Source: a virus
Lineage: Duplodnaviria; Caudoviricetes
Strand: one strand, 5' to 3'
Virus record (IMG/VR): IMGVR_UViG_3300020045_018756
Span: 1-25,788 of that record
DNA length: 25,788 bases
Shown: positions 1,431 through 19,138 of the stretch, one piece after another
How positions within the stretch are numbered: position 1 is the first letter of the stretch
How the letters are laid out: every line of letters starts with the position of its first letter
The notes under the pieces: model-generated
Database searches by the model: none
Told to the model about the DNA's origin: nothing
Seen by the model: only the letters and a program-made list of their open reading frames with translations
Made by a program: the position numbers and the translations under genes

Positions 1431-1637
1431 ATGGAACTCACTAGACGCTATCAAGCCTTTCGCATTGTCCGTGAACCCATCGGCAAGGCCCCATTGGGCG
1501 AAATTCGCATATCTATGCAACCCATCGGAAAGCCCTTTCTCTCTCCCGAACCGGAAAAGGCCCTGCAAACCGCCTATCAGCAATTCCCCCTTCTCGGTCG
1601 GGGGGTTTGTGTGGGGTCAGCCCATGACTACTCCTGA
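1431..1637 (+). CDS. Hypothetical phage protein
   Basis: ATG at 1431 (MELTRRY...) after a purine-rich GGAAAGAAAA; overlaps the next gene. Confidence 0.6.
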   Translation: MELTRRYQAFRIVREPIGKAPLGEIRISMQPIGKPFLSPEPEKALQTAYQQFPLLGRGVCVGSAHDYS

Positions 1638-1818
1638 CCCCAATCTCTCCCTCCAAGCGGACGAAATAATCCGCGCAGTGAACGCCGGGGAGAAAATCCC
1701 AGCCGAAGCCCTGCGCGCTTTTATCCTCGCCGCCAATGCAAACCTTGAAAACAATCGAAAAACCCGCATCAAGGAAGAAGCGAAACTTCTCAAACCCACA
1801 GACGTGGACTTTTTCTGA
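1624..1818 (+). CDS. Small protein with C-terminal DVDFF tail; paralog of 603-788
   Basis: ATG at 1624 (MTTPDPN...), 64 aa. The longer 1279 start would overlap two other genes. Confidence 0.75.
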   Translation: MTTPDPNLSLQADEIIRAVNAGEKIPAEALRAFILAANANLENNRKTRIKEEAKLLKPTDVDFF

Positions 1819-1827
1819 AGAGGCAAA

Positions 1828-2118
1828 ATGAACACTGAATACCAAATCTCCCCCACGGCAAAACTGGTGATAGATTTTGACTATCAGCCCGGAAGCCCTG
1901 GGGTTCACACATTGCCCAACGGCGATCCGGGCTACCCTGAAACCCCGGAAACCTTGGAAATTACCTCAATTGAACTCCACACAAAGCTCGGAAATAAGTG
2001 GTTCCCCTCCACCATTTTCCTCGACATGGAAATCCTGAACGAAGAATTCCTTTTGTCCCTGGCCGAAAAGGAAATCGAACGCCAACGGAAAATCCGTGAA
2101 GCCTCACAGGAAGACTAA
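1828..2118 (+). CDS. Hypothetical phage protein (PNGDPGYP motif)
   Basis: GAGG RBS, 96 aa, acidic. Confidence 0.75.
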   Translation: MNTEYQISPTAKLVIDFDYQPGSPGVHTLPNGDPGYPETPETLEITSIELHTKLGNKWFPSTIFLDMEILNEEFLLSLAEKEIERQRKIREASQED

Positions 2119-2119
2119 C

Positions 2120-2278
2120 ATGATCCAATCTAACACCACCATCGCAATTCTCCTTGGCACCGGCTTTCTAGCCTTTCTTCTTTTCATCGGCAGCATGGCC
2201 CAGCTTTCCCTCGACTGCCGCAAGGCTGCAATGGCGCAGAAATATTCCGCCATTGAAATTCAGGGGATTTGCAAATGA
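2120..2278 (+). CDS. Small single-pass membrane protein
   Basis: AGGA RBS; hydrophobic IAILLGTGFLAFLLFIG followed by a short domain with two Cys. Confidence 0.7.
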   Translation: MIQSNTTIAILLGTGFLAFLLFIGSMAQLSLDCRKAAMAQKYSAIEIQGICK

Positions 2279-2682
2279 CCATTATATGCGACCCCGAAGA
2301 CGCTTGGCTTCTAACTAGATATTCCTGGCATCTAAACAATTCCGGTTATGTTTCAGGCGGGGGCACTCGCCTATTTCACCGGGTAGTAATGCAAGCCAAA
2401 CCGGGGCAAGAAGTTCACCATAAGAATCACAACAAACAAGACTGCCGCAAGGAAAATTTGGAATTTGTGACACATGCTGAAAATGCAGAAGCGCATTGGC
2501 AATTGAAGCATCCGGCAAAGCGCCTTCCAAAAACGTCAACCACAAAAATTGTCGGAGTTTCATGGGATAAAAAAGCAAATAAATGGCGTGCTTACACAAC
2601 GCATCCGATGCGGGTTATCGGACGTTCCATTGATTTCTTTGAAGCCTGCTGCCTTCGCAAAAGTTGGGAGCGTTATGTATAA
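2275..2682 (+). CDS. Free-standing HNH homing endonuclease with AP2-like C-terminal domain
   Basis: FHRVVM...VHHKNHNKQDCRKENL...ENA is an HNH motif; C-terminus is GVSWDK..KW...DFFEACC.RKSWE; ATGA overlap with the upstream gene. Confidence 0.9.
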   Translation: MTIICDPEDAWLLTRYSWHLNNSGYVSGGGTRLFHRVVMQAKPGQEVHHKNHNKQDCRKENLEFVTHAENAEAHWQLKHPAKRLPKTSTTKIVGVSWDKKANKWRAYTTHPMRVIGRSIDFFEACCLRKSWERYV

Positions 2683-3622
2683 TCAATTCACCCCAAACAC
2701 AAAGACCGAATTTCCTCTGGTCTTCGATAATTCCATGCGCAGCGCCTTTGTCTCCTGCCCCCAAGCTTTCCATTGGGAGTACATGCGGCACCTGAAAACC
2801 CTTCAGCCCAGCATCCACCTGCATGCCGGAAAGGCCTGGGCCAGCGCATTGGAAATGATGCGATTGGTCTTTTATCGGGACAAAGAGCCCATTGAAAATG
2901 CAATGGAAGCGGGCATTCAGGCGCTCATTGCGGAGTACGGGGATTTTCCCTGCCCTCCGCATGTGGCGAAATCCCTCCCCCGCATGCTGGAAGCGTTTAC
3001 TTACTACTGTCAGGCATTCCCTTTGGACGCCGATCCTGTGCAGCCCTATTGGGGCCACAACGGCCCGATGGTTGAATTTTCCTTCGCCCTCCCCCTGGAC
3101 ATTGAGGATGAAGGGCTCCGTCACCCCGACACCGGGGAGCCAATCCTCTATTCCGGCCGTGCCGACATGGTGGCAACCTATGCCGGCGCCCTGTCCATCT
3201 ACGATGACAAAACAACCTCCCAACTCGGCGCTCAATGGTCCGGTCAATGGGACCGCAGAAGCCAATTTTCCGGCTATGCTTGGGCCGCACAGCAGATGGG
3301 GCTGAATGTTTCACAGATAATCGTCCGTGGCATCGCAATCAAAAAAACATCCATCGACCACGCCCAAGCCATCACTGTTCGCACAAAAGAACACATAGCC
3401 GAATGGCACAAGCAGGTTAAACGCGACATCAAACGCGCCATCACCTGCTACACCGAAGGCTACTGGGACAAAGACCTCGCCGAATCCTGCTCCGGCTATG
3501 GCGGCTGCATCTTCAAACAGCCCTGCGGCGCAAAAGACCCCGAACCCTGGCTAACCAGCAACTTCCAAATCCGGGAATGGAACCCCGTAACTCGTGAGGA
3601 GATTACCCATGAATCAACTTGA
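2675..3622 (+). CDS. PD-(D/E)XK nuclease, Cas4/AddB-like exonuclease with probable Fe-S cluster
   Basis: N-terminal SCP, core EFSF...GRADMV...IYDDKTT...Q..GY, and C-terminal C-x5-C-x5-C giving a 1+3 Cys arrangement; ATG at 2675 after GGGAG. Confidence 0.88.
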   Translation: MYNQFTPNTKTEFPLVFDNSMRSAFVSCPQAFHWEYMRHLKTLQPSIHLHAGKAWASALEMMRLVFYRDKEPIENAMEAGIQALIAEYGDFPCPPHVAKSLPRMLEAFTYYCQAFPLDADPVQPYWGHNGPMVEFSFALPLDIEDEGLRHPDTGEPILYSGRADMVATYAGALSIYDDKTTSQLGAQWSGQWDRRSQFSGYAWAAQQMGLNVSQIIVRGIAIKKTSIDHAQAITVRTKEHIAEWHKQVKRDIKRAITCYTEGYWDKDLAESCSGYGGCIFKQPCGAKDPEPWLTSNFQIREWNPVTREEITHEST

Positions 3623-3842
3623 ATATGCCAAAACCCTCCGTGAAGGCGCGGAGAAGCTTTTAACTTCGCCAACTAGTCAGTGGTGGTATGCTAGCATTTC
3701 TAGTAGCGATCAAGTTTTTAATTGGCTTTGCAAACTTAGTGAATCGGAAAAACCTTCTCATCCTCTCGACTTCATGACCAACAACCAAGCCGCCCTCTGC
3801 TTCCTCCTCCTCGCCACTGCCCTCGAATCCGGGGACCTGTAA
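3609..3842 (+). CDS. Hypothetical phage protein
   Basis: GAGGAG RBS, ATG at 3609, 77 aa. Confidence 0.7.
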   Translation: MNQLEYAKTLREGAEKLLTSPTSQWWYASISSSDQVFNWLCKLSESEKPSHPLDFMTNNQAALCFLLLATALESGDL

Positions 3843-4048
3843 TGGGCCAAAAAACCATCTTCATTTCCGCAGTGTCCATAAAAAACCTCCTCACCGACCC
3901 CCCATCCAAGATTTTTCTTCTCCGTGCCGCAGCTTTGGAAAAACAGGCCACCCATTGCGATGTCTTTTTTCCCTGGCCGGCTTTGGCAGAGAGCTTTCGA
4001 AACGACGCGGAGAAACTGAGACAGGCTTATAGAAAGGGTTTGAAATGA
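3842..4048 (+). CDS. Hypothetical phage protein
   Basis: TAATG overlap with the upstream gene; 68 aa. Confidence 0.65.
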   Translation: MGQKTIFISAVSIKNLLTDPPSKIFLLRAAALEKQATHCDVFFPWPALAESFRNDAEKLRQAYRKGLK

Positions 4049-4494
4049 CTAACACCGCCGAACTACAGGCGCGGCTGCGGATAGCCGATGCGCGAGGACT
4101 GGCCCCGCCACAAAACTGGACAACCGTTTGCGCCGACGCCCTCGCCGCACAGGATGCGGAGCTTGCCGCGCTACGGGCAGAGCGTGACGCTGCTGTGGCG
4201 GATGCGGAGCGGTGGCGCTGGTTGCGCGAGCTTCGGTGCAACTCGTTGAGCCTGACGCGCAACGATGACCACGCATGCAACTACATGACCGCGAAGCAGT
4301 GGATTGAAGAAACCGGGCGAGCCGAAGACTGGGAAGACGTACCCGCCGAAGAGTTGCAGCGCATGAAGGACACGAACACCATCTGGCGCCTGCAGGTGTA
4401 CCCGGACACCCCCATCGGCTTCAATGTATGGCATGGCGCAACGCCAGAAGCAGCCGTTGACGCAGCCCGCACACAGCCGGAGAAAAAGCCATGA
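4045..4494 (+). CDS. Accessory phage protein (Ead/Ea22-like ALRAERDA..DAERWRWLR module)
   Basis: Recognisable lambdoid-type accessory motif; higher GC than its neighbours; ATGA overlaps at both ends. Confidence 0.75.
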   Translation: MTNTAELQARLRIADARGLAPPQNWTTVCADALAAQDAELAALRAERDAAVADAERWRWLRELRCNSLSLTRNDDHACNYMTAKQWIEETGRAEDWEDVPAEELQRMKDTNTIWRLQVYPDTPIGFNVWHGATPEAAVDAARTQPEKKP

Positions 4495-4784
4495 CCCGCC
4501 TCCCCTGGCCCGGTGAAATCTGGGTTCTAACTTTCTCCCGCGGAATCCCGGGCGTTAAACCCCTGGAAGTCCAAATCACCGATGTCGATTCCTCCCTCGT
4601 TTGGTTCGTCTACACCGATAAAAACGATACCTCAAATCTCCTCGCCACTCCCACGGAAATCTTCCCCTCCCTCTACACTTTTGTCCGAGGCTCGCAATGC
4701 AAGATCCAAGCGAAAAAGAGCTTTTCCTTCAAAACCGCTTGGCAATGGCTTCGGTCCTTCTTCACCAATGTACCCAATTCCTAG
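4491..4784 (+). CDS. Hypothetical phage protein (small beta/SH3-like N-terminus, amphipathic C-terminus)
   Basis: GGAG RBS and ATGA overlap; PWPGEIW...V.ITDV pattern. Confidence 0.65.
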   Translation: MTRLPWPGEIWVLTFSRGIPGVKPLEVQITDVDSSLVWFVYTDKNDTSNLLATPTEIFPSLYTFVRGSQCKIQAKKSFSFKTAWQWLRSFFTNVPNS

Positions 4785-4824
4785 CCCGGCATCCCCATCC
4801 TAACTCAACCCTTTTCATCGTCCA

Positions 4825-6898: not shown

Positions 6899-7348
6899 AT
6901 GGCTAATAACCGCCTGTTTGACCCCGTGGCTTTTATGAACGAGCAATTGGAAGAAAATGCCACGGCATCTATTCCTCTCCCCGAAGGCGAACCCTTGGCG
7001 CAAATCGTGAAAGTCGATTTTGCCAACGGCGAGAAAAACGGTAAGCCCTGGACCCGCTTGGACGCCCGGCTGGAAATCACGGACTTTGCCTATCTCGGCG
7101 ATTACCCCGCCGTGGACGGCAAGGTTTCCCGCACCTTCGGCATCATGCTGGATTTGGAAAACGGCCAAATCGCCACTGGCCCCAATCGCAATGTTCGCCT
7201 GGGCAAGTTCCGTGAAGCCGCCGGCGTCAATGGCAAGCCCCTGGCTGCATTGGTCGGCCAAATGATCCGAGTTGCAATCAAGCAAAAGCCTGGTTACAAC
7301 GACCCCAGCCAAACTGTCGATGAAATCGTGGGTTTCTCGGCGGCGTGA
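6899..7348 (+). CDS. Putative ssDNA-binding protein (OB-fold, DUF669-like)
   Basis: AAGGA RBS; P.PEGE..AQI..V...G...GKPW...L.ALVGQ.IRV.IKQ pattern; own promoter and terminator; lies in the Sak4 recombination module. Confidence 0.65.
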   Translation: MANNRLFDPVAFMNEQLEENATASIPLPEGEPLAQIVKVDFANGEKNGKPWTRLDARLEITDFAYLGDYPAVDGKVSRTFGIMLDLENGQIATGPNRNVRLGKFREAAGVNGKPLAALVGQMIRVAIKQKPGYNDPSQTVDEIVGFSAA

Positions 7349-7354
7349 TTGACC

Positions 7355-7385
7355 GGGGCCGGGGAAACTCGGCCCCTTTTTCTTT
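7355..7385 (+). terminator. Intrinsic terminator after the SSB-like gene
   Basis: GGGGCCGGG-GAAA-CTCGGCCCC hairpin followed by TTTTTCTTT. Confidence 0.9.
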
Positions 7386-7393
7386 GGAAAATC

Positions 7394-7549
7394 ATGATCC
7401 CCCTCTGCCACACTTGCCGACATTATCGAAATTCTCCCGCCGGGGAGAAATGTGCCAACCCCAAAATCCCCGCTGGGCCAAACCCCTTATTCTGGGCCGT
7501 TTTAAAATGCGGGGAGAAAAGGGACTTCTGGGAGAAAAAACGTGATTGA
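7394..7549 (+). CDS. Small Cys-rich protein
   Basis: ATG at 7394; CHTCRH...C...C; 51 aa. Confidence 0.55.
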   Translation: MIPLCHTCRHYRNSPAGEKCANPKIPAGPNPLFWAVLKCGEKRDFWEKKRD

Positions 7550-7913
7550 TTTTACCGGTTTGTCGAAGGTCGTCACTGCGATTGCGTTTCGAGGAAAAAC
7601 CTATTCAATTGAACGGTTAACCCCGAATGGGCTTTTAGAACTGCAAGAGGCATTGCGGGAAATTGATAGGCCCGCAGCAGCGCAGCCGCTGACCGCAATT
7701 GCAAATGACATTCTCTCGGCTACAGAAGTGCTCAATCAGGTGCGCGCCCTAGACGCCGCCACCCCACCAGCAGCGCCTGAGCCGCTGAGCGAGTGGGCCA
7801 TCGTCGAAATGGTGTCGACGTGGGGCGCTACCAAAGGCGCGAGCCTTGCCGATCTGATCCGCACGGTTGAGCGCGCCCACGGCATTGGGGCCGGCGCACA
7901 GGAGCGGGCATGA
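7542..7913 (+). CDS. Hypothetical, apparently chimeric accessory protein
   Basis: GTG start after GGAG; the 3' half is GC-rich and ends in a R.VE.AHGIG motif typical of temperate-phage accessory proteins. Confidence 0.65.
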   Translation: MIDFTGLSKVVTAIAFRGKTYSIERLTPNGLLELQEALREIDRPAAAQPLTAIANDILSATEVLNQVRALDAATPPAAPEPLSEWAIVEMVSTWGATKGASLADLIRTVERAHGIGAGAQERA

Positions 7914-8155
7914 CCGAATACGAAGCCCAAGTCATTTTCCATGCCTGGCACAAAGAACAGTGCCAGTGGCATTTAATGGCGGGGCTTTCAAGAAAATACA
8001 AATGGCACCGGGAACAAGCTAAGTGGCATAATGCTCGCTTGAACACCCTTCCTCTCAGTTTTTTTGTGGCGTACGCTTTTAAGAAAAATGCGCACCTAAT
8101 CACCGCAAATGTTACAAAGAACAACTCCCTTTTCAACCGTCTAAAAGCAAAATGA
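7910..8155 (+). CDS. Hypothetical basic protein
   Basis: AGGAG RBS; ATGA overlaps at both ends. Confidence 0.65.
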   Translation: MTEYEAQVIFHAWHKEQCQWHLMAGLSRKYKWHREQAKWHNARLNTLPLSFFVAYAFKKNAHLITANVTKNNSLFNRLKAK

Positions 8156-9282
8156 CCCTCTCCTCAGGACAACTTCCCTCGGAGATAATGATTATCGCCG
8201 ACGCCCCAGACTGGCACGAGCTCTCCCGGAACGACGCCTTCTCCGATTGGGCAGTCACACAAACCCTAATCCCCGCCTGCAAGGTCCTGGGGACAATCAA
8301 ACATGCCTGTTTCCTCACCTACCTTTTCCCCCGCGCATTGCAAGAAAAAGAAGAACCCAAAACCTTCCTCGCCGAACGCAAAACTTCCCCCGGCGCCGGC
8401 TGGGTTTGGGAAAATGGTTTCTGGCTCAACCCGGAAATTCTTAATCACAAGCGCGAGTTACTTCGGGTCATTGGGGAGGTAAAACCCCGCATTATCATTG
8501 CCACGGGACCTTTGACCCTTTGGGCTTTGGCCGGGGTGAAAGAGTTATCCAAGTGGCGGGGGAGCAGGCTCCAGCCCCCGGGCCTGCCTTGTCCATTGGT
8601 CCCAACTCTCCCCCTCGACAGCCCCAAAACCCAACCCGAAAACCTGGGGATTATCCTCATGGACTTCAATCGGGCGAAGAACATTTACGAGGGCACTCAA
8701 GTCCCCAAGGACTACAAATTCACCATCAAACCCACTTTCAAAGAAGCGGAAACCGCTTTATGTGCTCTATATCAAAAAGCCGAGGAAGGCCCTTTACTCC
8801 TAGCCGGGGACCTAGAAACCCGTTTAGGGCACATTGCTTGTTTTGGAATTGCTTGGAGTGAAACTGAAGCGATCTGTCTGCCAATCCTCCATGTTGGGCA
8901 AGCGGAACCTTTTTATTGGACTGACACCCAAGAAGCTTGGCTTATTGCTATTCTGCAAACTTTGTTTCGCCACCCAAACATAACCTGGACCGGGCAAAAC
9001 TATCTCTACGATTGCCAATACTTTTTCCGCCATTGGGGCTTTCTCCCCATCAAGGTCTTCGACACAATGATCGGGCATCATTCCCTCTACTCCAACATGC
9101 GCAAGGGCCTGGACTTTCTTTCCAGCAAATACGCCCACGACCATGTTTATTGGAAGGATGAAATTAAAGAATGGGACCCGGTCTTCGGGGAACAGCAATA
9201 TTGGACGTATAATTGCAAAGACGCCTGCATTACCTGGGAAATCACCGGGGCCATTAAACAAACTTTGGAGGAAATGTTATGA
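8152..9282 (+). CDS. DNA polymerase A N-terminal part: degenerate family-4 UDG-like domain plus 3'-5' exonuclease
   Basis: UDG-like IMIIADAP...CFLT...VKPRIIIATG..LWAL...KWRGS; ExoI DLET, ExoII QNYLYD, DTM, ExoIII YNCKD. Confidence 0.88.
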   Translation: MTLSSGQLPSEIMIIADAPDWHELSRNDAFSDWAVTQTLIPACKVLGTIKHACFLTYLFPRALQEKEEPKTFLAERKTSPGAGWVWENGFWLNPEILNHKRELLRVIGEVKPRIIIATGPLTLWALAGVKELSKWRGSRLQPPGLPCPLVPTLPLDSPKTQPENLGIILMDFNRAKNIYEGTQVPKDYKFTIKPTFKEAETALCALYQKAEEGPLLLAGDLETRLGHIACFGIAWSETEAICLPILHVGQAEPFYWTDTQEAWLIAILQTLFRHPNITWTGQNYLYDCQYFFRHWGFLPIKVFDTMIGHHSLYSNMRKGLDFLSSKYAHDHVYWKDEIKEWDPVFGEQQYWTYNCKDACITWEITGAIKQTLEEML

Positions 9283-9632
9283 CTGATCGGGAACTTTTGG
9301 AACTCGCGGCGAAAGCTGCGGAGATTGCTCTTGTTTGGTGCGACAAGATTGATTCCGGCATTTGCTATGAGCACATAAGCGATCATCCAAGGCCGCATTG
9401 GGGGCATGCAGAGTACCCGCACCAAGAGTGGAACCCCCTAACCGATGATGGCGACGCTTTTCGTCTAGCTATAAAGCTTGACATGCGAGTCTCCGTAAAT
9501 CAAGTCGATTGGGCTGGAAATGCGTATGTGGGGGCTCTTGTCTTCGATGAGAAAAATGGCCCGGACGCCTACACGGCTACTCGGCGGGCAATCGTTATGG
9601 CAGCGGCGCATATTGGAGGGCAGTTGAAATGA
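9279..9632 (+). CDS. Conserved phage hypothetical protein (MTDRELLELAAKAA...WNPL.DDGDA.RLA family) inserted in polA
   Basis: GGAGG RBS, ATGA overlap and recognisable family motifs. Confidence 0.85.
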   Translation: MTDRELLELAAKAAEIALVWCDKIDSGICYEHISDHPRPHWGHAEYPHQEWNPLTDDGDAFRLAIKLDMRVSVNQVDWAGNAYVGALVFDEKNGPDAYTATRRAIVMAAAHIGGQLK

Positions 9633-9931
9633 GCACAGCACCAGAACTGCCGGCGCTGCCCAGCGTTGGGCCTGTCTGCTACGCCATGAGGGCGGATATC
9701 GAGCTTTACCGCGTACCACGCGTCGGAGCGCATCTCGTGGGCGTGTATGACATCGCCCTATACACCGCAGACCAGATGCTCGCCTACGGCGCCGCCTGTG
9801 CTGCTGCGGAGCGTGAGGCGTGCGCGAAGCTCTGTGAAGAGGGTGAAGAATATTCCGGCACGGACAGTTGGCTAGTAGGGCATGCCACAGCCTGCAAATC
9901 CAAGGCTGCTGCCATCCGCGCAAAAAAATGA
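9629..9931 (+). CDS. Accessory phage protein (LYTADQM.AY / EREACAK modules) inserted in polA
   Basis: GGAGG RBS, ATGA overlaps at both ends, GC-rich. Confidence 0.8.
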   Translation: MSTAPELPALPSVGPVCYAMRADIELYRVPRVGAHLVGVYDIALYTADQMLAYGAACAAAEREACAKLCEEGEEYSGTDSWLVGHATACKSKAAAIRAKK

Positions 9932-11238
9932 CATTTTCCCTCCGCGATCATTTCGAGTTTCAGCAGGCCCTCTTTTTCCCCGTTCTCCGCATGATGAATC
10001 GGGGGATTCGGATTGATGAAAAGCTGAAGGCAGAACTTCGGACGGAAATTGTGAAACTGGCTTTTGAACGACAGGAGCAATTGGATTACATTTGCGGCCA
10101 CAGCCTAAATGTCCGCAGCCCAAAACAACTAATTTCCTTCTTCTACACCGACCTGGGCATTCCGGGGATAAAGAATCTAGCCACGGATTCCCTCACCACA
10201 AACTCCCCGACGATGGCCTTAATCGCCCAGCGGGAGCCCGCCCTAAAGCCCCTGTGCCAGCTAATCGTAGAACTGCGCTCTTTGGGCGTTTTCAAAAGCA
10301 CCTTCATCGACGCCGAGCTAGACACCGACTCCCGCATGCGCTGTTCCTTCGGCATCGCAGCAACCGAGACCAATCGCTTCAATTCCCGTGAAAATGCCTT
10401 CGGAACAGGCATGAACATGATGAACATTCCCTCGGGAGAAAAGGAGAAAATTAAAAGTGAGACCTATGTTAAGCTGCCAAATATTCGTAAGCTTTTCATT
10501 CCGGACCCCGGCTATACCTTCTTCGACATGGATTTGGACCGGGCTGACTTACAGGTTGTTGTTTGGGAAGCAGACGACAAACCATTAAAGCTCGCCCTCC
10601 GCTCCGGCATCGACACACATTGTCTCAACGCCTGCGACATCTTCGACATAAAAGGAATCCCGCCCGATGAGCTTACCGAAACCCATCCGAACTACAAGGA
10701 TAGACGGGGACAAATTGGTGAAAGTCGCCGAGGCAAGGCGAAGGCCGGTGTTCACGCAACTAATTACGGAGTCGGCGATCGCACATTGGCGATGGCTCTC
10801 GGAATCACAGTACAAGAAGCCGCGCAATTCCGGCGGAAATGGTTTGCAGCGCATCCCGGCATCCAGAAGTGGCATACACGCACAACTGAGCAGGTTACCA
10901 AAAGAGGCTATATTGAAAACCGTTTCGGTGCGCGTTTTTATAGGCTCGGTCGTTTTGACCTACCCGAATTTCTGGGCTGGCTCCCGCAGAGCACTGTTGC
11001 CGGTGTTATTAACCGAGCCCTACTCAACATCGACACCGAAGCGCAAGCTGGCCTCACTTCTATCCAGCTTCTTCTCCAAGTCCACGACTCCCTTGCTGGC
11101 CAGTTTCTTTCGAGTAAAAGGGATGAGGAAATTGCCAAGCTCAAAGCCCTTTCTCAAATTGTGGTGCCCTATGAGGACCCATTGATTATTCCTGTAAGTG
11201 TTAAATGTTCCATTCAATCATGGGGGGATTGTTCGTGA
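9928..11238 (+). CDS. polA: DNA polymerase family A, polymerase (thumb/palm/fingers) domain
   Basis: RGIRID, LNVRSPKQL, ETNRFNS, motif A DLDRADLQV, motif B R..AKAGVHATNYG, PQST, motif C QVHDS; ATG at 9928. Confidence 0.95.
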   Translation: MTFSLRDHFEFQQALFFPVLRMMNRGIRIDEKLKAELRTEIVKLAFERQEQLDYICGHSLNVRSPKQLISFFYTDLGIPGIKNLATDSLTTNSPTMALIAQREPALKPLCQLIVELRSLGVFKSTFIDAELDTDSRMRCSFGIAATETNRFNSRENAFGTGMNMMNIPSGEKEKIKSETYVKLPNIRKLFIPDPGYTFFDMDLDRADLQVVVWEADDKPLKLALRSGIDTHCLNACDIFDIKGIPPDELTETHPNYKDRRGQIGESRRGKAKAGVHATNYGVGDRTLAMALGITVQEAAQFRRKWFAAHPGIQKWHTRTTEQVTKRGYIENRFGARFYRLGRFDLPEFLGWLPQSTVAGVINRALLNIDTEAQAGLTSIQLLLQVHDSLAGQFLSSKRDEEIAKLKALSQIVVPYEDPLIIPVSVKCSIQSWGDCS

Positions 11239-11663
11239 GTTCAGCTTATCAATCATGGCACAGTATGAAACGCCGTTGCCTTTGGCCTTGGCATAAGGAT
11301 TATGCCCGTTACGGAGCAAAGGGGATTACAATAGCTGTAGCATGGCATATGTACAGTGTTTTTCTAAAAGACATGGGAGAGCGTCCTCCTGGGACTACTC
11401 TAGGGCGAAGAGACAATGATAAAGGCTACAATAAAGACAACTGTTTTTGGGCTACCTATAGTCAACAGGCGCAAAATAAGAAAAAATTAGATAGAAATAC
11501 CAGCGGATGCACTGGGGTGTCTTGGCAAGCAAAACAAGGAAAATGGCTTGTCTCTCGTAGCAAGGATTATGCTCGAATAACTCTCTATTGGGGTTTGGAT
11601 TTCTTTGAAGCATGCTGTGCCGCTAAAAGTTGGGAAGTTAATGTTATAGGGGACTGCAAATGA
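11235..11663 (+). CDS. HNH-type homing endonuclease with AP2-like C-terminal domain
   Basis: Y.SW.SMK.RC...YGAKGI...W...FLKDMGERP...R.DND.GY...NC.WAT...Q..N, then NTSG.TGVSW...DFFEACC; GTG start overlaps the pol stop; AT-rich. Confidence 0.85.
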   Translation: MSSAYQSWHSMKRRCLWPWHKDYARYGAKGITIAVAWHMYSVFLKDMGERPPGTTLGRRDNDKGYNKDNCFWATYSQQAQNKKKLDRNTSGCTGVSWQAKQGKWLVSRSKDYARITLYWGLDFFEACCAAKSWEVNVIGDCK

Positions 11664-11896
11664 CAACCTACACCCATCTCTGTAATTTCCCTGGCTGCAC
11701 AATTTCCATTGGAAAAAATGCCTGGGCCTGTTCCGCCCACTGGCAACAGTTGGACCCAGTTCTTCGGATTGAGCTATGGAACAATTATCCGAGTCCGATT
11801 GAATATGCCAGAAGCTCAACTAGGATCAAGGAGATTCTGGCCTTAGCCCTGCGGGCGAAGCTAGACTCCGGCCCCAATCAGGAGAATGCGAAATGA
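11660..11896 (+). CDS. Small zinc-finger protein (C-x4-C...C-x2-H)
   Basis: HLCNFPGC...ACSAHWQQL; ATGA overlaps. Confidence 0.7.
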   Translation: MTTYTHLCNFPGCTISIGKNAWACSAHWQQLDPVLRIELWNNYPSPIEYARSSTRIKEILALALRAKLDSGPNQENAK

Positions 11897-12126
11897 ACCT
11901 ATTTTCCGGTTTGAAGGGGGAAGGGCTAGGCAACCAAGCCGAACTCTATTGCCCTTTCTGTAAAACCTGGACCGACATTGGGCCTGAATATAACGACAAA
12001 TCCGAACAACGCTGGAATTGCGGGTTTTGTGGAAAGGGCCCAGAACAATGGGCCCCATTTGAGCATTATCCTGTCGCTTTAGAGGCGTGGAACACTTGGG
12101 TTTTGGAGGAGCGCGGTGTCAAATGA
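11893..12126 (+). CDS. Zinc-ribbon protein, Lar (restriction alleviation)-like
   Basis: CPFC...CGFCGKGP...A.EAWN pattern. Confidence 0.6.
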   Translation: MNLFSGLKGEGLGNQAELYCPFCKTWTDIGPEYNDKSEQRWNCGFCGKGPEQWAPFEHYPVALEAWNTWVLEERGVK

Positions 12127-13324
12127 ACGAGAAATCCCCGATTGGCTATCAGAATTCACCCGAAACTCCGCCTGGGGAGAAGCCCCACAGCACATGTATT
12201 TCTGGGTCGGAGTGGCGACTATTGCTGCAACCCTGCGAAGGCGTGTATGGCTGGACATGGGCACATTCGACTGGTATCCGAATCTTTATACCCTGCTCGT
12301 TGCTCCACCGGGAGTCATTGCCAAAAGCACAACCGCCGATCTTGGATTCACAAGAATCCTTAAAAAGGTTCCTGGAATTAACTTTGGCCCCGCAACCCTC
12401 ACTTGGCAAGCCATCTACGACGCCTTCGTCGAAGTCGGAGTAGAATTTGAAGTCCAGGGCGAACCGGAAATGCACACGGAATTTGCCTTGGCAATCCTGT
12501 CCTCCGAGTTTGGCATCACCCTAAATCCAAAAGACACCGAAATGATCGACCAACTCGTCCACATTTGGGACGGGCGGGAGATGAGAAAAAGAACCAGAAA
12601 AGACGGGGATTTAACGATTGCCACCCCTTGCCTCAACTTAATAGCCTGCACCACCCCTTCATGGATATCTGAAAATGTACCAAAATACCTCATTGGTGGG
12701 GGTCTTACGAGTCGCATGCTTTTCGTTTATGCAGACTCGAAGGTCCAATATATTGCGTATCCAGGGGACGCTATCCCTAAAGACTACAAAGAGCGAAACG
12801 CAAGGCTCATCCGTGACTTGGAGCGAATCTCTAATCTTACCGGAAAGTTCACTCTTACCCCTGATGCAAAAGCTTGGGGAACAGAATGGTACGAGCATTT
12901 CCATAAAGTGGAATCAAAACAAATCGACGCCACAATCCTTGGAGGATATATCGCGAGAAAACAGACCCTGGTACATAAAGTGGCAATGTGCCTGTCCGTC
13001 AGCCTTTCTGACAACCTCGTTATATCCAGAGAAATCCTAGAAAGAGCCGTCAAGCTCATCACCCACCTTGAAGCGGAAATGCCGCTGGTCTATTCCAAAA
13101 TCGGGCAAACTTCCGAAGCTGCTGCTGGGGAGACAATCATCGAATTTCTGAAAAGATACAATGGCACCGTCCCCTTCGCCCTGCTCTATCGTTACATGCA
13201 CAAAAGTTTCCCCAATGTAGAAGAATTTGAAACAATTCTCCGCGGCATGATTGAGGCCGGTTACATCACCATCAACAAAGCCAATCGCACGGTCATCCTT
13301 TTGGAGAAAAAAGATGGCCAATGA
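12116..13324 (+). CDS. DUF3987/YfjI-like P-loop replicative helicase with probable C-terminal winged helix
   Basis: GGAGGAG RBS and GTG start; YPNLY.LLVAPPGVIAKST, SSEFG, WDG, GG.TSR..F motifs. Confidence 0.75.
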   Translation: MSNEREIPDWLSEFTRNSAWGEAPQHMYFWVGVATIAATLRRRVWLDMGTFDWYPNLYTLLVAPPGVIAKSTTADLGFTRILKKVPGINFGPATLTWQAIYDAFVEVGVEFEVQGEPEMHTEFALAILSSEFGITLNPKDTEMIDQLVHIWDGREMRKRTRKDGDLTIATPCLNLIACTTPSWISENVPKYLIGGGLTSRMLFVYADSKVQYIAYPGDAIPKDYKERNARLIRDLERISNLTGKFTLTPDAKAWGTEWYEHFHKVESKQIDATILGGYIARKQTLVHKVAMCLSVSLSDNLVISREILERAVKLITHLEAEMPLVYSKIGQTSEAAAGETIIEFLKRYNGTVPFALLYRYMHKSFPNVEEFETILRGMIEAGYITINKANRTVILLEKKDGQ

Positions 13325-13556
13325 GAAGCTTCAAATGAAAATCTACAATGAGGGCTATTGCTGCCCTTATGGCTATCTTCGCCTTTGCCGGGCCAGAGGG
13401 CAAACCAATGGCAGCATTGCAAAATACCAAAACCTCAGCATTAAAATCATTCAATACAACTATCGAAAAATCCTTTCCGGGGGACATAAATGCCAAAATC
13501 TCCAAGACTGTCTTCTCCACGACATTGAAACAATAGAAAAAGAAAAGGGCCAATGA
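13314..13556 (+). CDS. Small Cys-rich protein with possible helix-turn-helix
   Basis: GGAG RBS, ATG at 13314; CCP...C, G.T...IA...NLS...I...Y, C...C. Confidence 0.6.
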   Translation: MANEKLQMKIYNEGYCCPYGYLRLCRARGQTNGSIAKYQNLSIKIIQYNYRKILSGGHKCQNLQDCLLHDIETIEKEKGQ

Positions 13557-13567
13557 GGCCCTTTTTT
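13543..13567. terminator. Bidirectional intrinsic terminator between the convergent arms
   Basis: AAAAGGGCC-AATGA-GGCCCTTTTTT, with A and T tracts on the two sides. Confidence 0.85.
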
Positions 13568-13590
13568 GTTGCTGGAAAAATCCCTCTTTC

Positions 13591-14070
13591 TCAGGACTTT
13601 CTTCCCTCGAATTGTACTTCAGCCATTCTTGACCGAATAACCCGGCCAAGACAAGCATGCTCGGTGTAAACCAAAACCGAAGTCGCGCCATCTGTCACAG
13701 GCTTCACAACCCAAATCCCGGTGTCAATAATTCCCGCATCGTGCACAATGCCCTGGCTTTGTGCCGCATCAGGCCGGGCTACAGAGGCCATCCCCCGCAC
13801 CCCGGAGGCATCCACGGCATACCCATACATTCGCAATAGCCTACATTCATCCCCTCGATGCTTCTCAATAACAATATGCACCCGCACGTTATCCTCGCCC
13901 CTATCCACAACAGTAGTGGACACTGGCGACACAACAGGATAAGCATCATCGTATAAATCCAAAATTGGCGCAGCCCAATGCGGGGCCATTAGCACAAGCA
14001 TTATGCCCAAACTAAGCCCAATCAACGTACTCCAGGGCATTCGCCAAACAGCCGAAACAACCTTCATCAT
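13591..14070 (-). CDS. Membrane-anchored protein with a soluble beta-rich domain (possibly lysis-related)
   Basis: ATG at 14070 overlaps the upstream stop; N-terminal TM LIGLSLGIMLVLMA; two Cys in the soluble part. Confidence 0.65.
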   Translation of the reverse strand: MMKVVSAVWRMPWSTLIGLSLGIMLVLMAPHWAAPILDLYDDAYPVVSPVSTTVVDRGEDNVRVHIVIEKHRGDECRLLRMYGYAVDASGVRGMASVARPDAAQSQGIVHDAGIIDTGIWVVKPVTDGATSVLVYTEHACLGRVIRSRMAEVQFEGRKS

Positions 14071-18010: not shown

Positions 18011-19138
18011 TTAGGTAGCAGACACCAAATGCCCGCTGAACGATTCGACAAGAGTTGCAAGGCCCCCGCCGACAGTGGTATAGATGGAAACGATATCCGA
18101 GGCAGCAAGCAAAACAGTGGCCCCGGCACCTGTTCGGACATTCAAACTTGACCCCGAAATAGCCGTTGCCCAGACATCAATAGCGGCCCCATTTACCCGC
18201 AAAGCGCCATTGACATATCCGCCGCCATTATTCGATTGGACGACAAAATCAAAGTGGTAATACCCGGCAACCGGAGCCGTGTAACGGCCAGTTGCGGCGT
18301 TAAAAGCCCCGGCAGGATCAAAAACTTCAGTGTAGGTTGTGGCTTCATTTGTCCCAGCAGACGATGTAGCACTGGAGCTTGCCCGAAATGGGCGCACAGC
18401 CTGCACCAAGCCTTCCGGGGTGAATTTAGCAACTTCCGCCCCATTACAAGCCACACCTATTTCATCACTACCGGCATAGAACAAACCGGAATCCGTCGAT
18501 GAGGAAAAATTCAACGACGGAGCCGCAGCGGAGCCGGTTGCTAATTCAATCGGGGTAAGCGCAACAGATTTTGTGTTGGCAACGACAAAGGATCGTACCC
18601 CTAAAACTGCAAAATCCATCGCACCCGCCCCTGAGCGGTAGATCCCAGTAGTTGGCTCTGCGGAGAAACTGAAACTCGGATCCCCAAGAGAACCGGCAGA
18701 TATTTCAATACCGGCAGAGGCTTCGATGTAGGTTAGGGCAACAACCTTTGTGTCCTTCACCGAAAGCGAACGAACACCCCCAGCGGTGAAGTCTAGTGAA
18801 TCTGCGCCTTCGCTGTAAATTCCGGTATTCGTATCCCCCGTGATGAACAAACTCGGCGCTGCCGAGGTTCCCAGGGCCAAACCCAACGAAGCACTGCTCT
18901 GCCCGAAAAGCAAATACTCCCCCGATGTACTCGCTGCAACCGCCCCCGTATGCTTAAACCCACCCATTGGCAAATTCGCAGTGGCGGCATTCTGCCCATT
19001 TTTCGTCAGGGCCACATTCAGCCCCGTTGAAATGTCGTTTAATGTGCCATTATAGCGGACAGAATCCACCAAATTCCCCGGGGCTTCGGGGAAGTATAAG
19101 GCGGGGAGGGAATAAACCCCTGAGCCGTTCCAGGACAT
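18011..19138 (-). CDS. Tail fibre protein with three internal repeats and a C1q-like C-terminal domain
   Basis: N-terminal M.WNGSG.YSLP...ND...GL...LTK.GQ...TANLPMGGFK.TG anchor; C-terminal FD..G.FN..TG.YTAPVAGYYHF. Confidence 0.8.
   Translation of the reverse strand: MSWNGSGVYSLPALYFPEAPGNLVDSVRYNGTLNDISTGLNVALTKNGQNAATANLPMGGFKHTGAVAASTSGEYLLFGQSSASLGLALGTSAAPSLFITGDTNTGIYSEGADSLDFTAGGVRSLSVKDTKVVALTYIEASAGIEISAGSLGDPSFSFSAEPTTGIYRSGAGAMDFAVLGVRSFVVANTKSVALTPIELATGSAAAPSLNFSSSTDSGLFYAGSDEIGVACNGAEVAKFTPEGLVQAVRPFRASSSATSSAGTNEATTYTEVFDPAGAFNAATGRYTAPVAGYYHFDFVVQSNNGGGYVNGALRVNGAAIDVWATAISGSSLNVRTGAGATVLLAASDIVSIYTTVGGGLATLVESFSGHLVSAT
18422..18871 (-). repeat. Three protein-level repeats (G[ST]...PS..F....[TS]G[IL][YF]..G...) in the tail fibre
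   Basis: GTSAAPSLFITGDTNTGIY / GSLGDPSFSFSAEPTTGIY / GSAAAPSLNFSSSTDSGLF. Confidence 0.85.

Follow-up and report, generated by a model that had tools for sequence, protein, structure and literature searches.

Family A DNA polymerases (PolAs) encoded by two genes are known from S-SBP1-like T7-like cyanophages, in which the enzyme is cut between its exonuclease (exo) and polymerase (pol) domains and the split enzyme has been modeled as a complex (Czernecki et al. 2023, PMC10201439). The split gp43A/43B of T4-like phages (Aeromonas phages 25 and 44RR) copurify with activity (PMC2988022), and nrdA of Aeh1 is split by mobE into pieces that need added tails (PMC3045599). PolAs that include uracil-DNA glycosylase (UDG) as a domain are reported for N4-like (cluster 17), SPO1-like, and SP15-like enzymes (PMC10201439; PMC13697223), and a split DNA polymerase, for which the authors suggested an intron, is reported for the OM43 phages MEP401 and MEP402 (PMC10580990). 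The subject here is a UDG-exo-PolA encoded as two genes in a 25,788-bp linear virus record (IMG/VR IMGVR_UViG_3300020045_018756, approximately 60% complete), the whole of which is referred to as the window. Sequence comparison, structure modeling, and analogy make it likely that the enzyme is cut at a turn and that its halves are translationally coupled and reassemble noncovalently as a two-subunit polymerase. The gene layout, the intact catalytic residues, the recurrence of the cut, and the interchangeability of the cargo in the gap (none, an HNH nuclease, or small open reading frames [ORFs]) are established. Because exo/pol fission of PolA has already been published, the surprise is limited; what this locus adds is a recurrently split UDG-PolA whose new boundary takes interchangeable cargo.

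The first half (8152..9282, + strand; 376 amino acids [aa]) consists of a degenerate family-4-UDG-like domain (approximately residues 1 to 180) and a 3'-5' exonuclease, as assigned from Pfam, alignments, and the model of a fused relative. The second half (9928..11238, +; 436 aa from its ATG) is the thumb-palm-fingers part of a family A DNA polymerase, assigned from Pfam and motifs. Between them lie the cargo genes p1 (9279..9632, +; 117 aa) and p2 (9629..9931, +; 100 aa, 61% GC), the latter with a stop that overlaps the pol start. The exo half ends in EEML* at the end of the ExoIII helix, the 645 nt from its stop to the pol start are fully coding, and all three junctions from the exo half through p1 and p2 to the pol half are ATGA overlaps. 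Four-base overlaps join 13 of the 19 consecutive gene pairs listed for the region, which makes such an overlap the rule there. An earlier note on this DNA had described a family A polymerase in two intact halves flanking two small ORFs, which ORFs, Pfam matches, and catalytic residues bear out, and an approximately 650-nt gap filled by the two ORFs via ATGA overlaps, with which the ORF coordinates agree. A Shine-Dalgarno (SD)-like GGAGG found by anti-SD pairing (9267..9271, +) lies inside the exo tail codons, 7 nt 5' of the p1 start. SD pairing energies are -9.3 kcal/mol for p1 and -9.8 kcal/mol for p2, with a background 5% quantile of -8.0. A promoter and terminator scan of positions 7300 to 13600 gave counts at shuffle level and none inside the insert.

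Both halves retain the hallmarks of family A, with a PolA profile, motifs A, B, and C, and the ExoI to ExoIII residues. Residues 199 to 372 of the first half match Pfam DNA_pol_A_exo1 (E value, 1.9e-11), and the second half matches DNA_pol_A (E value, 3.5e-40). The exo catalytic residues D220, E222, D287, Y353, and D357 are present and are invariant in 75 of 75 aligned sequences, and the pol catalytic residues D202, R268, K272, H386, and D387 are also present. The earlier note had called the first half an exonuclease half, which was correct as far as the exonuclease goes and overlooked the N-terminal UDG-like domain. The window's own UDG-like domain has no Pfam UDG match at an E value of 0.01; the first half can be aligned in full with homologues for which Pfam UDG matches are obtained (P0022, E value of 8e-25; P0002, E value of 3e-4), and the majority motif of the alignment, G-E-A-P-G, reads A-D-A-P-D in the window. 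The alignment supports the UDG-PolA domain order for the window, and it indicates that the conserved UDG catalytic motif of active (SPO1/SP15-like) UDG-PolAs is missing from a probably degenerate domain. An AlphaFold2 (AF2) model of the fused relative L001 (predicted local distance difference test score, 90.2; predicted template modeling score, 0.86) folds like Klenow (E value, 7e-31; 21 to 23% identity). It has a helix at residues 348 to 375, a turn at 376 to 377, and a helix at 378 to 386, which places the window's cut, as predicted from the model, in a 2-residue turn that joins the polymerase domain to the last exonuclease helix, in agreement with the exo/thumb boundary named in the earlier note.

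Like the S-SBP1-like PolA, the window enzyme has its fission at the exo/pol boundary, two intact genes, and a new stop and start at the junction, and the complex predicted for the cyanophage enzyme, rather than a frameshift, corresponds to the reading preferred here. As described in PMC10201439, the S-SBP1-like enzymes have one conserved fission, overlapping genes, and no cargo and are T7-like (cluster 5, Tyr at motif-B position B3), whereas the window has His at B3, a UDG domain, and 645 nt between stop and start, and its family has three cut sites, near-identical enzymes in fused and split forms, and exchangeable cargo. With the described UDG-PolA enzymes the window shares the order UDG-exo-pol, and its UDG motif is degenerate as in the N4-like enzymes; unlike the window enzyme, these are described as single chains, and the main text of PMC13697223 does not use the word "split." N4-like cluster 17 has Phe at B3, in contrast to the window's family, in which His occupies this position (E. 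coli PolA 762; window 10753-10755, pol residue 276) in 70 of 70 aligned members. Because of this His and the UDG domain, sequence comparison places the window outside both the S-SBP1 and N4-like groups. The B3 residues found listed for published PolAs are Phe, Tyr, or Leu, and no report of His at position 762 of PolA was found in a search of the open literature; the residue may alter nucleotide selection.

In gp43A/gp43B and Aeh1 nrdA, as in the window, an essential replication gene is broken into pieces that are separated by a homing endonuclease or other DNA. As described, those pieces reassemble as proteins, and whether the nuclease made or invaded the split is the same uncertainty as here. 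They differ from the window in that gp43 is a family B polymerase and nrdA a reductase, whereas the window encodes a PolA with a cargo that is not a nuclease; unlike the Aeh1 pieces, the window halves have new ends of only a few residues. Nothing on split gp43 was found in PMC2993671. The OM43 phages, likened here by description only, also have PolA in two ORFs with a small ORF of no known function between them, common to the phage group, but the cut lies inside the pol domain. No paper on recurrent splits in the window's UDG-PolA family was found in a search mostly of open-access literature and main texts.

The cut recurs in relatives of the window. Pattern scans gave 195 distinct loci, which are best matches and not a census, and 163 of them were callable at the exo/pol linker. 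Eleven loci were flagged as split; after L340 was removed as a mis-call and L053 was added by hand check, 11 DNA-checked loci, the window included, are cut at this linker. Five bear cargo, namely, the window (p1 and p2), L019 (two other small ORFs, 301 nt), and L111, L103, and L264 (an HNH nuclease of 139 to 143 aa), and in the other six (L004, L053, L171, L268, L271, and L272) the gap is empty and the halves overlap directly. Both kinds of relatives that the earlier note had envisaged, fused ones and ones split at the same site with different cargo, are found among the DNA-checked loci. Its proposal that the PolA has two subunits and accepts cargo at the exo/thumb boundary gains support, from sequence and model, in the 10 other loci, purifying selection, and the modeled turn. 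Separate exo and pol genes as a lineage trait, which the note had regarded as counterevidence to an interruption, are found in part, as the split recurs in the family and is not a one-off event due to p1 and p2. Among homologous proteins, 46 of 105 first halves (length filtered, window included) end 18 to 28 residues past the ExoIII tyrosine, and 42 of the 120 second halves listed (window included, two re-sorted by hand) start directly before the FQQ helix. Fourteen exo/pol protein pairs match in the size of their longest contig, and 10 of these contigs are 19 to 41 kb (by eye).

The closest match is a sister contig of 18,230 bp that encodes the same exo C terminus and a 436-aa pol half (P0223), which is 94% identical to the window's and has the same start position; the 28 amino acid differences include none at catalytic sites. 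The clusters of p1 and p2 contain the window's copy only, with no second member. Since the sister has the same split ends and p1 and p2 lack a second cluster member, the split is real and likely older than its cargo. Split pairs with a common junction have dN/dS (nonsynonymous to synonymous divergence) ratios of approximately 0.05 to 0.12 in both halves, which indicates purifying selection. The dN/dS values are 0.14/1.77 (first half) and 0.07/1.33 (second half) for L004 and L053, and those for L121 and L152, cut at another site, are 0.21/2.27 and 0.12/0.97.

Two further cut sites fall in loops of the L001 model. The second, directly before the ExoIII helix, is represented by L035, L048, L054, and L081 and approximately 38 proteins; the loci used were these four, checked by hand, and Caulobacter phage Kuura, and an automatic tally of nine was discarded (L107 is fused). 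The third, between the thumb and motif A, was found in 23 of 152 callable loci. Cargo at these cuts includes a dUTPase, a methyltransferase-like gene, and a helix-turn-helix protein, and the largest cargo in the family is up to approximately 2 kb (L285). Kuura has its cut directly before ExoIII, and its gap contains two small ORFs; the phage is a plaque-purified podovirus that reached 2.7e10 pfu/mL, with an assembly checked by BamHI digest (PMC9959647), which shows that a split layout is compatible with phage growth. Vibrio phage vB_VspS_VS-ABTNL-3 (GenBank record) is cut before motif A, with a 184-aa ORF in the gap. In L276, the polymerase (1498-4809) is in three pieces (UDG, exo plus thumb, and palm/fingers), with approximately 770 nt of cargo in the first gap. 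The dUTPase genes lie inside the thumb/motif A split of UDG-bearing polymerases in L339 (3995-4447), L340, and L346, and a dUTPase as cargo of a UDG-bearing polymerase is functionally suggestive.

In the most likely course of expression, one transcript would be read as exo, p1, p2, and pol. Translation of the pol half would restart at the p2 stop, in the way assumed for the first half at an upstream overlap of its own, and the halves would pack through an interface kept from the fused enzyme. The split would be older than, and independent of, p1 and p2, which may have used short-homology recombination at the start/stop overlap to enter a gene boundary that already existed, as other small genes of the early region may have done. 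Two observations touch the pol start itself. A run of seven A residues precedes it (9922-9928) and could serve as a -1 slip site, joining p2 to the pol frame, and an in-frame TTG at 9868 is a possible alternative pol start.

Several points weigh against a coupled two-subunit polymerase in the window. The pol half is without an SD and would rely on coupling through two foreign genes. At the exo/pol linker, 152 of the 163 callable loci are continuous, and the window and its sister group with the fused L001, P0101, and P0043, so that the nearest relatives beyond the sister are fused. The counts of stand-alone proteins are length selected and without DNA context, and such filtering selects split forms. 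The sister contig is known from its proteins, which do not cover the content of its gap; a degenerate pattern scan for its DNA gave 59 stretches, none encoding a relative. The window phage itself is known from DNA sequence alone. No isolate with its exact cut was found among the best 25 of 69 phage records or a further 10, and Kuura and vB_VspS_VS-ABTNL-3 are distant (25 to 33% identity) and cut at other sites.

The halves might instead be expressed separately without a stable complex, the pol half acting alone or with host factors and the UDG-exo half in trans, which is considered unlikely. The three cuts, the cargo of L285, and the three-piece form of L276 suggest that the constraint is loose. 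However, both halves are kept with invariant catalytic residues, and two of the cuts divide a single catalytic domain (in one the ExoIII helix is in the second gene, and in the other the thumb is parted from motif A), so that these forms can work only by reassembly. In addition, PolAs are described as structurally in need of their exo domain (PMC10201439).

It is very unlikely that the gene was recently inactivated, or its expression cut, by an insertion, leaving the phage defective or reliant on host polymerases. The foreign-looking codon usage of p1, the pol half without an SD, and a nearest fully seen relative that is fused are what such an event would predict, but neither half has decayed, the sister has the same cut and no catalytic change among its 28 pol differences, and in deep clades, all of whose members are split, dN is far below dS.

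Rejoining of the halves by DNA excision at AAATG, RNA splicing, or ribosomal bypass is highly improbable. The earlier note had pointed to the common frame of the halves (frame 1), given a 1-in-3 chance, and to the AAATG at 9272-9276 and 9926-9930, and both are present as claimed. The frame is nevertheless forced by the overlaps, since each ATGA shifts it by -1 and three return it to the first frame, and only 3 of the 11 split loci are in frame, with 8 out of frame. The repeat is not significant: a common 5-mer turns up in 13% of comparisons of random 16-nt zones from the two halves, and pairs of ATG sites have an ATG-containing 5-mer in common 19% of the time; a second 5-mer, ATGAC, likewise occurs at both junctions (9279 and 9928). 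The flanks are complementary, with a duplex energy of -16.1 kcal/mol that is reached in 0.8% of shuffles and 4% of random gene windows, but their pairing probability in the full-insert ensemble is approximately 0.05 and the complementarity is not present in four other cargo loci. Excision would give a linker of 27 residues, which occurs in 1 of 90 fused proteins, the modal length being 25 residues (74 of 90). A hairpin at the cargo-removed junction (z score of -2.3, P = 0.04) was dropped because none of four other cargo loci and none of six empty splits fold likewise (3 of 11 fused loci do) and residues 2 and 3 of the sister differ.

Bypass of the T4 gene 60 type relies on a short structured gap (about 50 nt) with matched take-off and landing codons on either side. 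In the window, the gap is approximately 650 nt and coding, and the TTA codon before the exo stop is not matched in frame by any of the 20 codons that precede the pol start; with 8 of 11 loci out of frame, this mechanism was rejected. A group I or II intron was also rejected: eight split loci (the window and seven others) had no Rfam match at the gathering score, with subthreshold snoRNA hits only, the insert folds no better than shuffles (z score of +0.8), and the gap is fully coding. In a fractured gene with a split intein, intein fragments lie on the inner ends of the halves (PMC2677866). Neither p1, p2, nor the half ends have a Hint or intein match, and the new ends of the halves add only a few residues over fused homologues. 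The proposal of rejoining made in the earlier note is therefore not upheld.

That the cargo is an assembly chimera is extremely unlikely: p1 and p2 are seen on the window contig only and a blastn search of the phage collection gave no match to the insert, but both junctions are exact ATGA overlaps, an independent contig has the same split ends, 5-nt repeats are far below assembly word lengths, and a chimera could concern only p1 and p2, not the split itself.

The cargo genes differ in how widely they are distributed. p1 matches phrog_5086 (E value, 5e-26), a widespread phage small-protein family with no assigned function, and belongs to an Atlas cluster of 3,194 members without Pfam. Among 600 stretches scanned, 328 p1 relatives were confirmed, and none of 80 p1 loci fetched adjoins a polymerase of the window's family. 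The codon score of p1 (-0.08 ± 0.04) is atypical for the window genome. p2 has no family match in profile searches and resembles only unnamed viral small proteins, with one weak match in L229, directly downstream of a p1 relative. A target-site duplication of ATGAC was not established because ATGAC is a common start word that begins 78 of 79 p1-family genes and 6 of 9 window genes checked. A likeness by eye between the second cargo ORF of L019 and gene 7910 was not confirmed by tblastn. The earlier note's statement that no intron, intein, or homing endonuclease is recognizable at the site is true of the window, where profile matches of p1 and p2 include no homing endonuclease; it fails for the family, as three of the five cargo-bearing loci have an HNH nuclease. 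A free-standing HNH nuclease (11205..11663, +), identified by profile and by comparison with relatives' HNHs, overlaps the pol end in the window and has 33 to 38% identity over approximately 75 aa to those inserted at the split in the three relatives.

The distribution of fused and split forms implies repeated change. On a tree of 26 DNA-checked first halves with the tail removed, at least eight changes of state are needed. A single clade of eight close split forms (approximately unbiased [AU] test, P = 7e-84) and one of the five cargo-bearing forms (AU test, P = 9e-6) were rejected, although the split trait itself was used to define the groups, when an earlier tree was already known, and recombination can look like repeated origin. 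Near-identical fused/split pairs are L013/P0111 (97%), L266/P0126 (98%), and L017/P0018 (20 differences in 370 residues), the split members being represented by proteins only. Across pol halves with a median body identity of 65 to 78%, three types of start word recur, none of which occurs in any of 18 fused linkers; pol halves with shared start words are only 59 to 78% alike, and the window's type is common to the group of L272 and a distant split clade. In L264 and L103, the last codons of the HNH gene contain the pol start codon, which in L111 overlaps the HNH stop. Together, the near-identical pairs, the recurring start words, and the HNH-borne pol starts suggest that junction alleles travel between lineages, perhaps by homing.

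Split junctions may thus move between lineages and, with less confidence, may have been first made or spread by an HNH nuclease whose 3' end supplies the start codon. In its full form, the split would be a mobile allele, in which the HNH gene inserts at the turn, donates the pol start, spreads by gene conversion, and leaves a cargo slot that is later filled, and this is put forward tentatively, as somewhat less probable than its negation. Of genes in pieces with an endonuclease between the pieces, L111, L103, and L264 are examples and the window is not. SD-like codons occur in fused and split exo tails alike, and the idea that they predispose to fission is suggestive only.

For the preferred reading of a two-subunit polymerase, these findings mean that a replicative PolA switches between one chain and two chains repeatedly and quickly (97 to 98% identical pairs occur in both states) at three permissive loops, which are natural split points for engineering conditional or split polymerases. 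The family also provides a workable way to test whether homing nucleases give rise to gene fissions or only invade existing ones, a question that PMC2988022 leaves open for gp43. If the homing of split alleles is true, single-chain polymerases would be switched to two-subunit ones with a cargo slot inside the replicase. Caution is needed in phage annotation and PolA marker surveys, as the halves are labeled "hypothetical," "UDG," or truncated polymerase.

Several smaller observations were made in the split relatives. The exo half of the sister, P0222, has a 256-residue intein-like insert at the ExoIII motif (residues 354 to 609), and an insert at the same spot, approximately 23 residues before the split, occurs in L053 (approximately 3180-3945), the two being distant split lineages; Pfam intein, Hint, and LAGLIDADG matches were obtained in L053 and were weak in P0222. 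All 34 differences between the exo halves P0001 and P0222 fall within residues 186 to 270, the rest being identical, which points to a recent recombination patch. The empty splits L004 (4728-4742), L053 (3986-3999), and L171 (4860-4873) have a conserved junction ending in CCT TAG C, which could be a GTG start led by an SD, with an overlap of 14 nt, or else a +1 frameshift at the proline codon before the stop. L148 has a single in-frame stop (approximately 4481-4483) where homologues have Trp in an otherwise continuous polymerase gene, either an error or a pseudogene.

In the remainder of the window, profile matches place the early/replication region on the + strand and the structural genes on the - strand. 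The + strand region encodes a PD-(D/E)XK exonuclease, a Sak4-like annealing protein, the polymerase genes, the HNH nuclease, and a DUF3987 primase/helicase-like gene, and annotated phages related to the window have genomes of 40 to 44 kb. Two more small GC-rich ORFs with four-base overlaps, 4045-4494 (63%) and 7542-7913 (59%), look like recently gained genes of the p1/p2 kind. Among the structural genes, a tail-fibre-like protein (18011-19138, -) carries a terminal C1q domain (Pfam E value, 1.4e-5).

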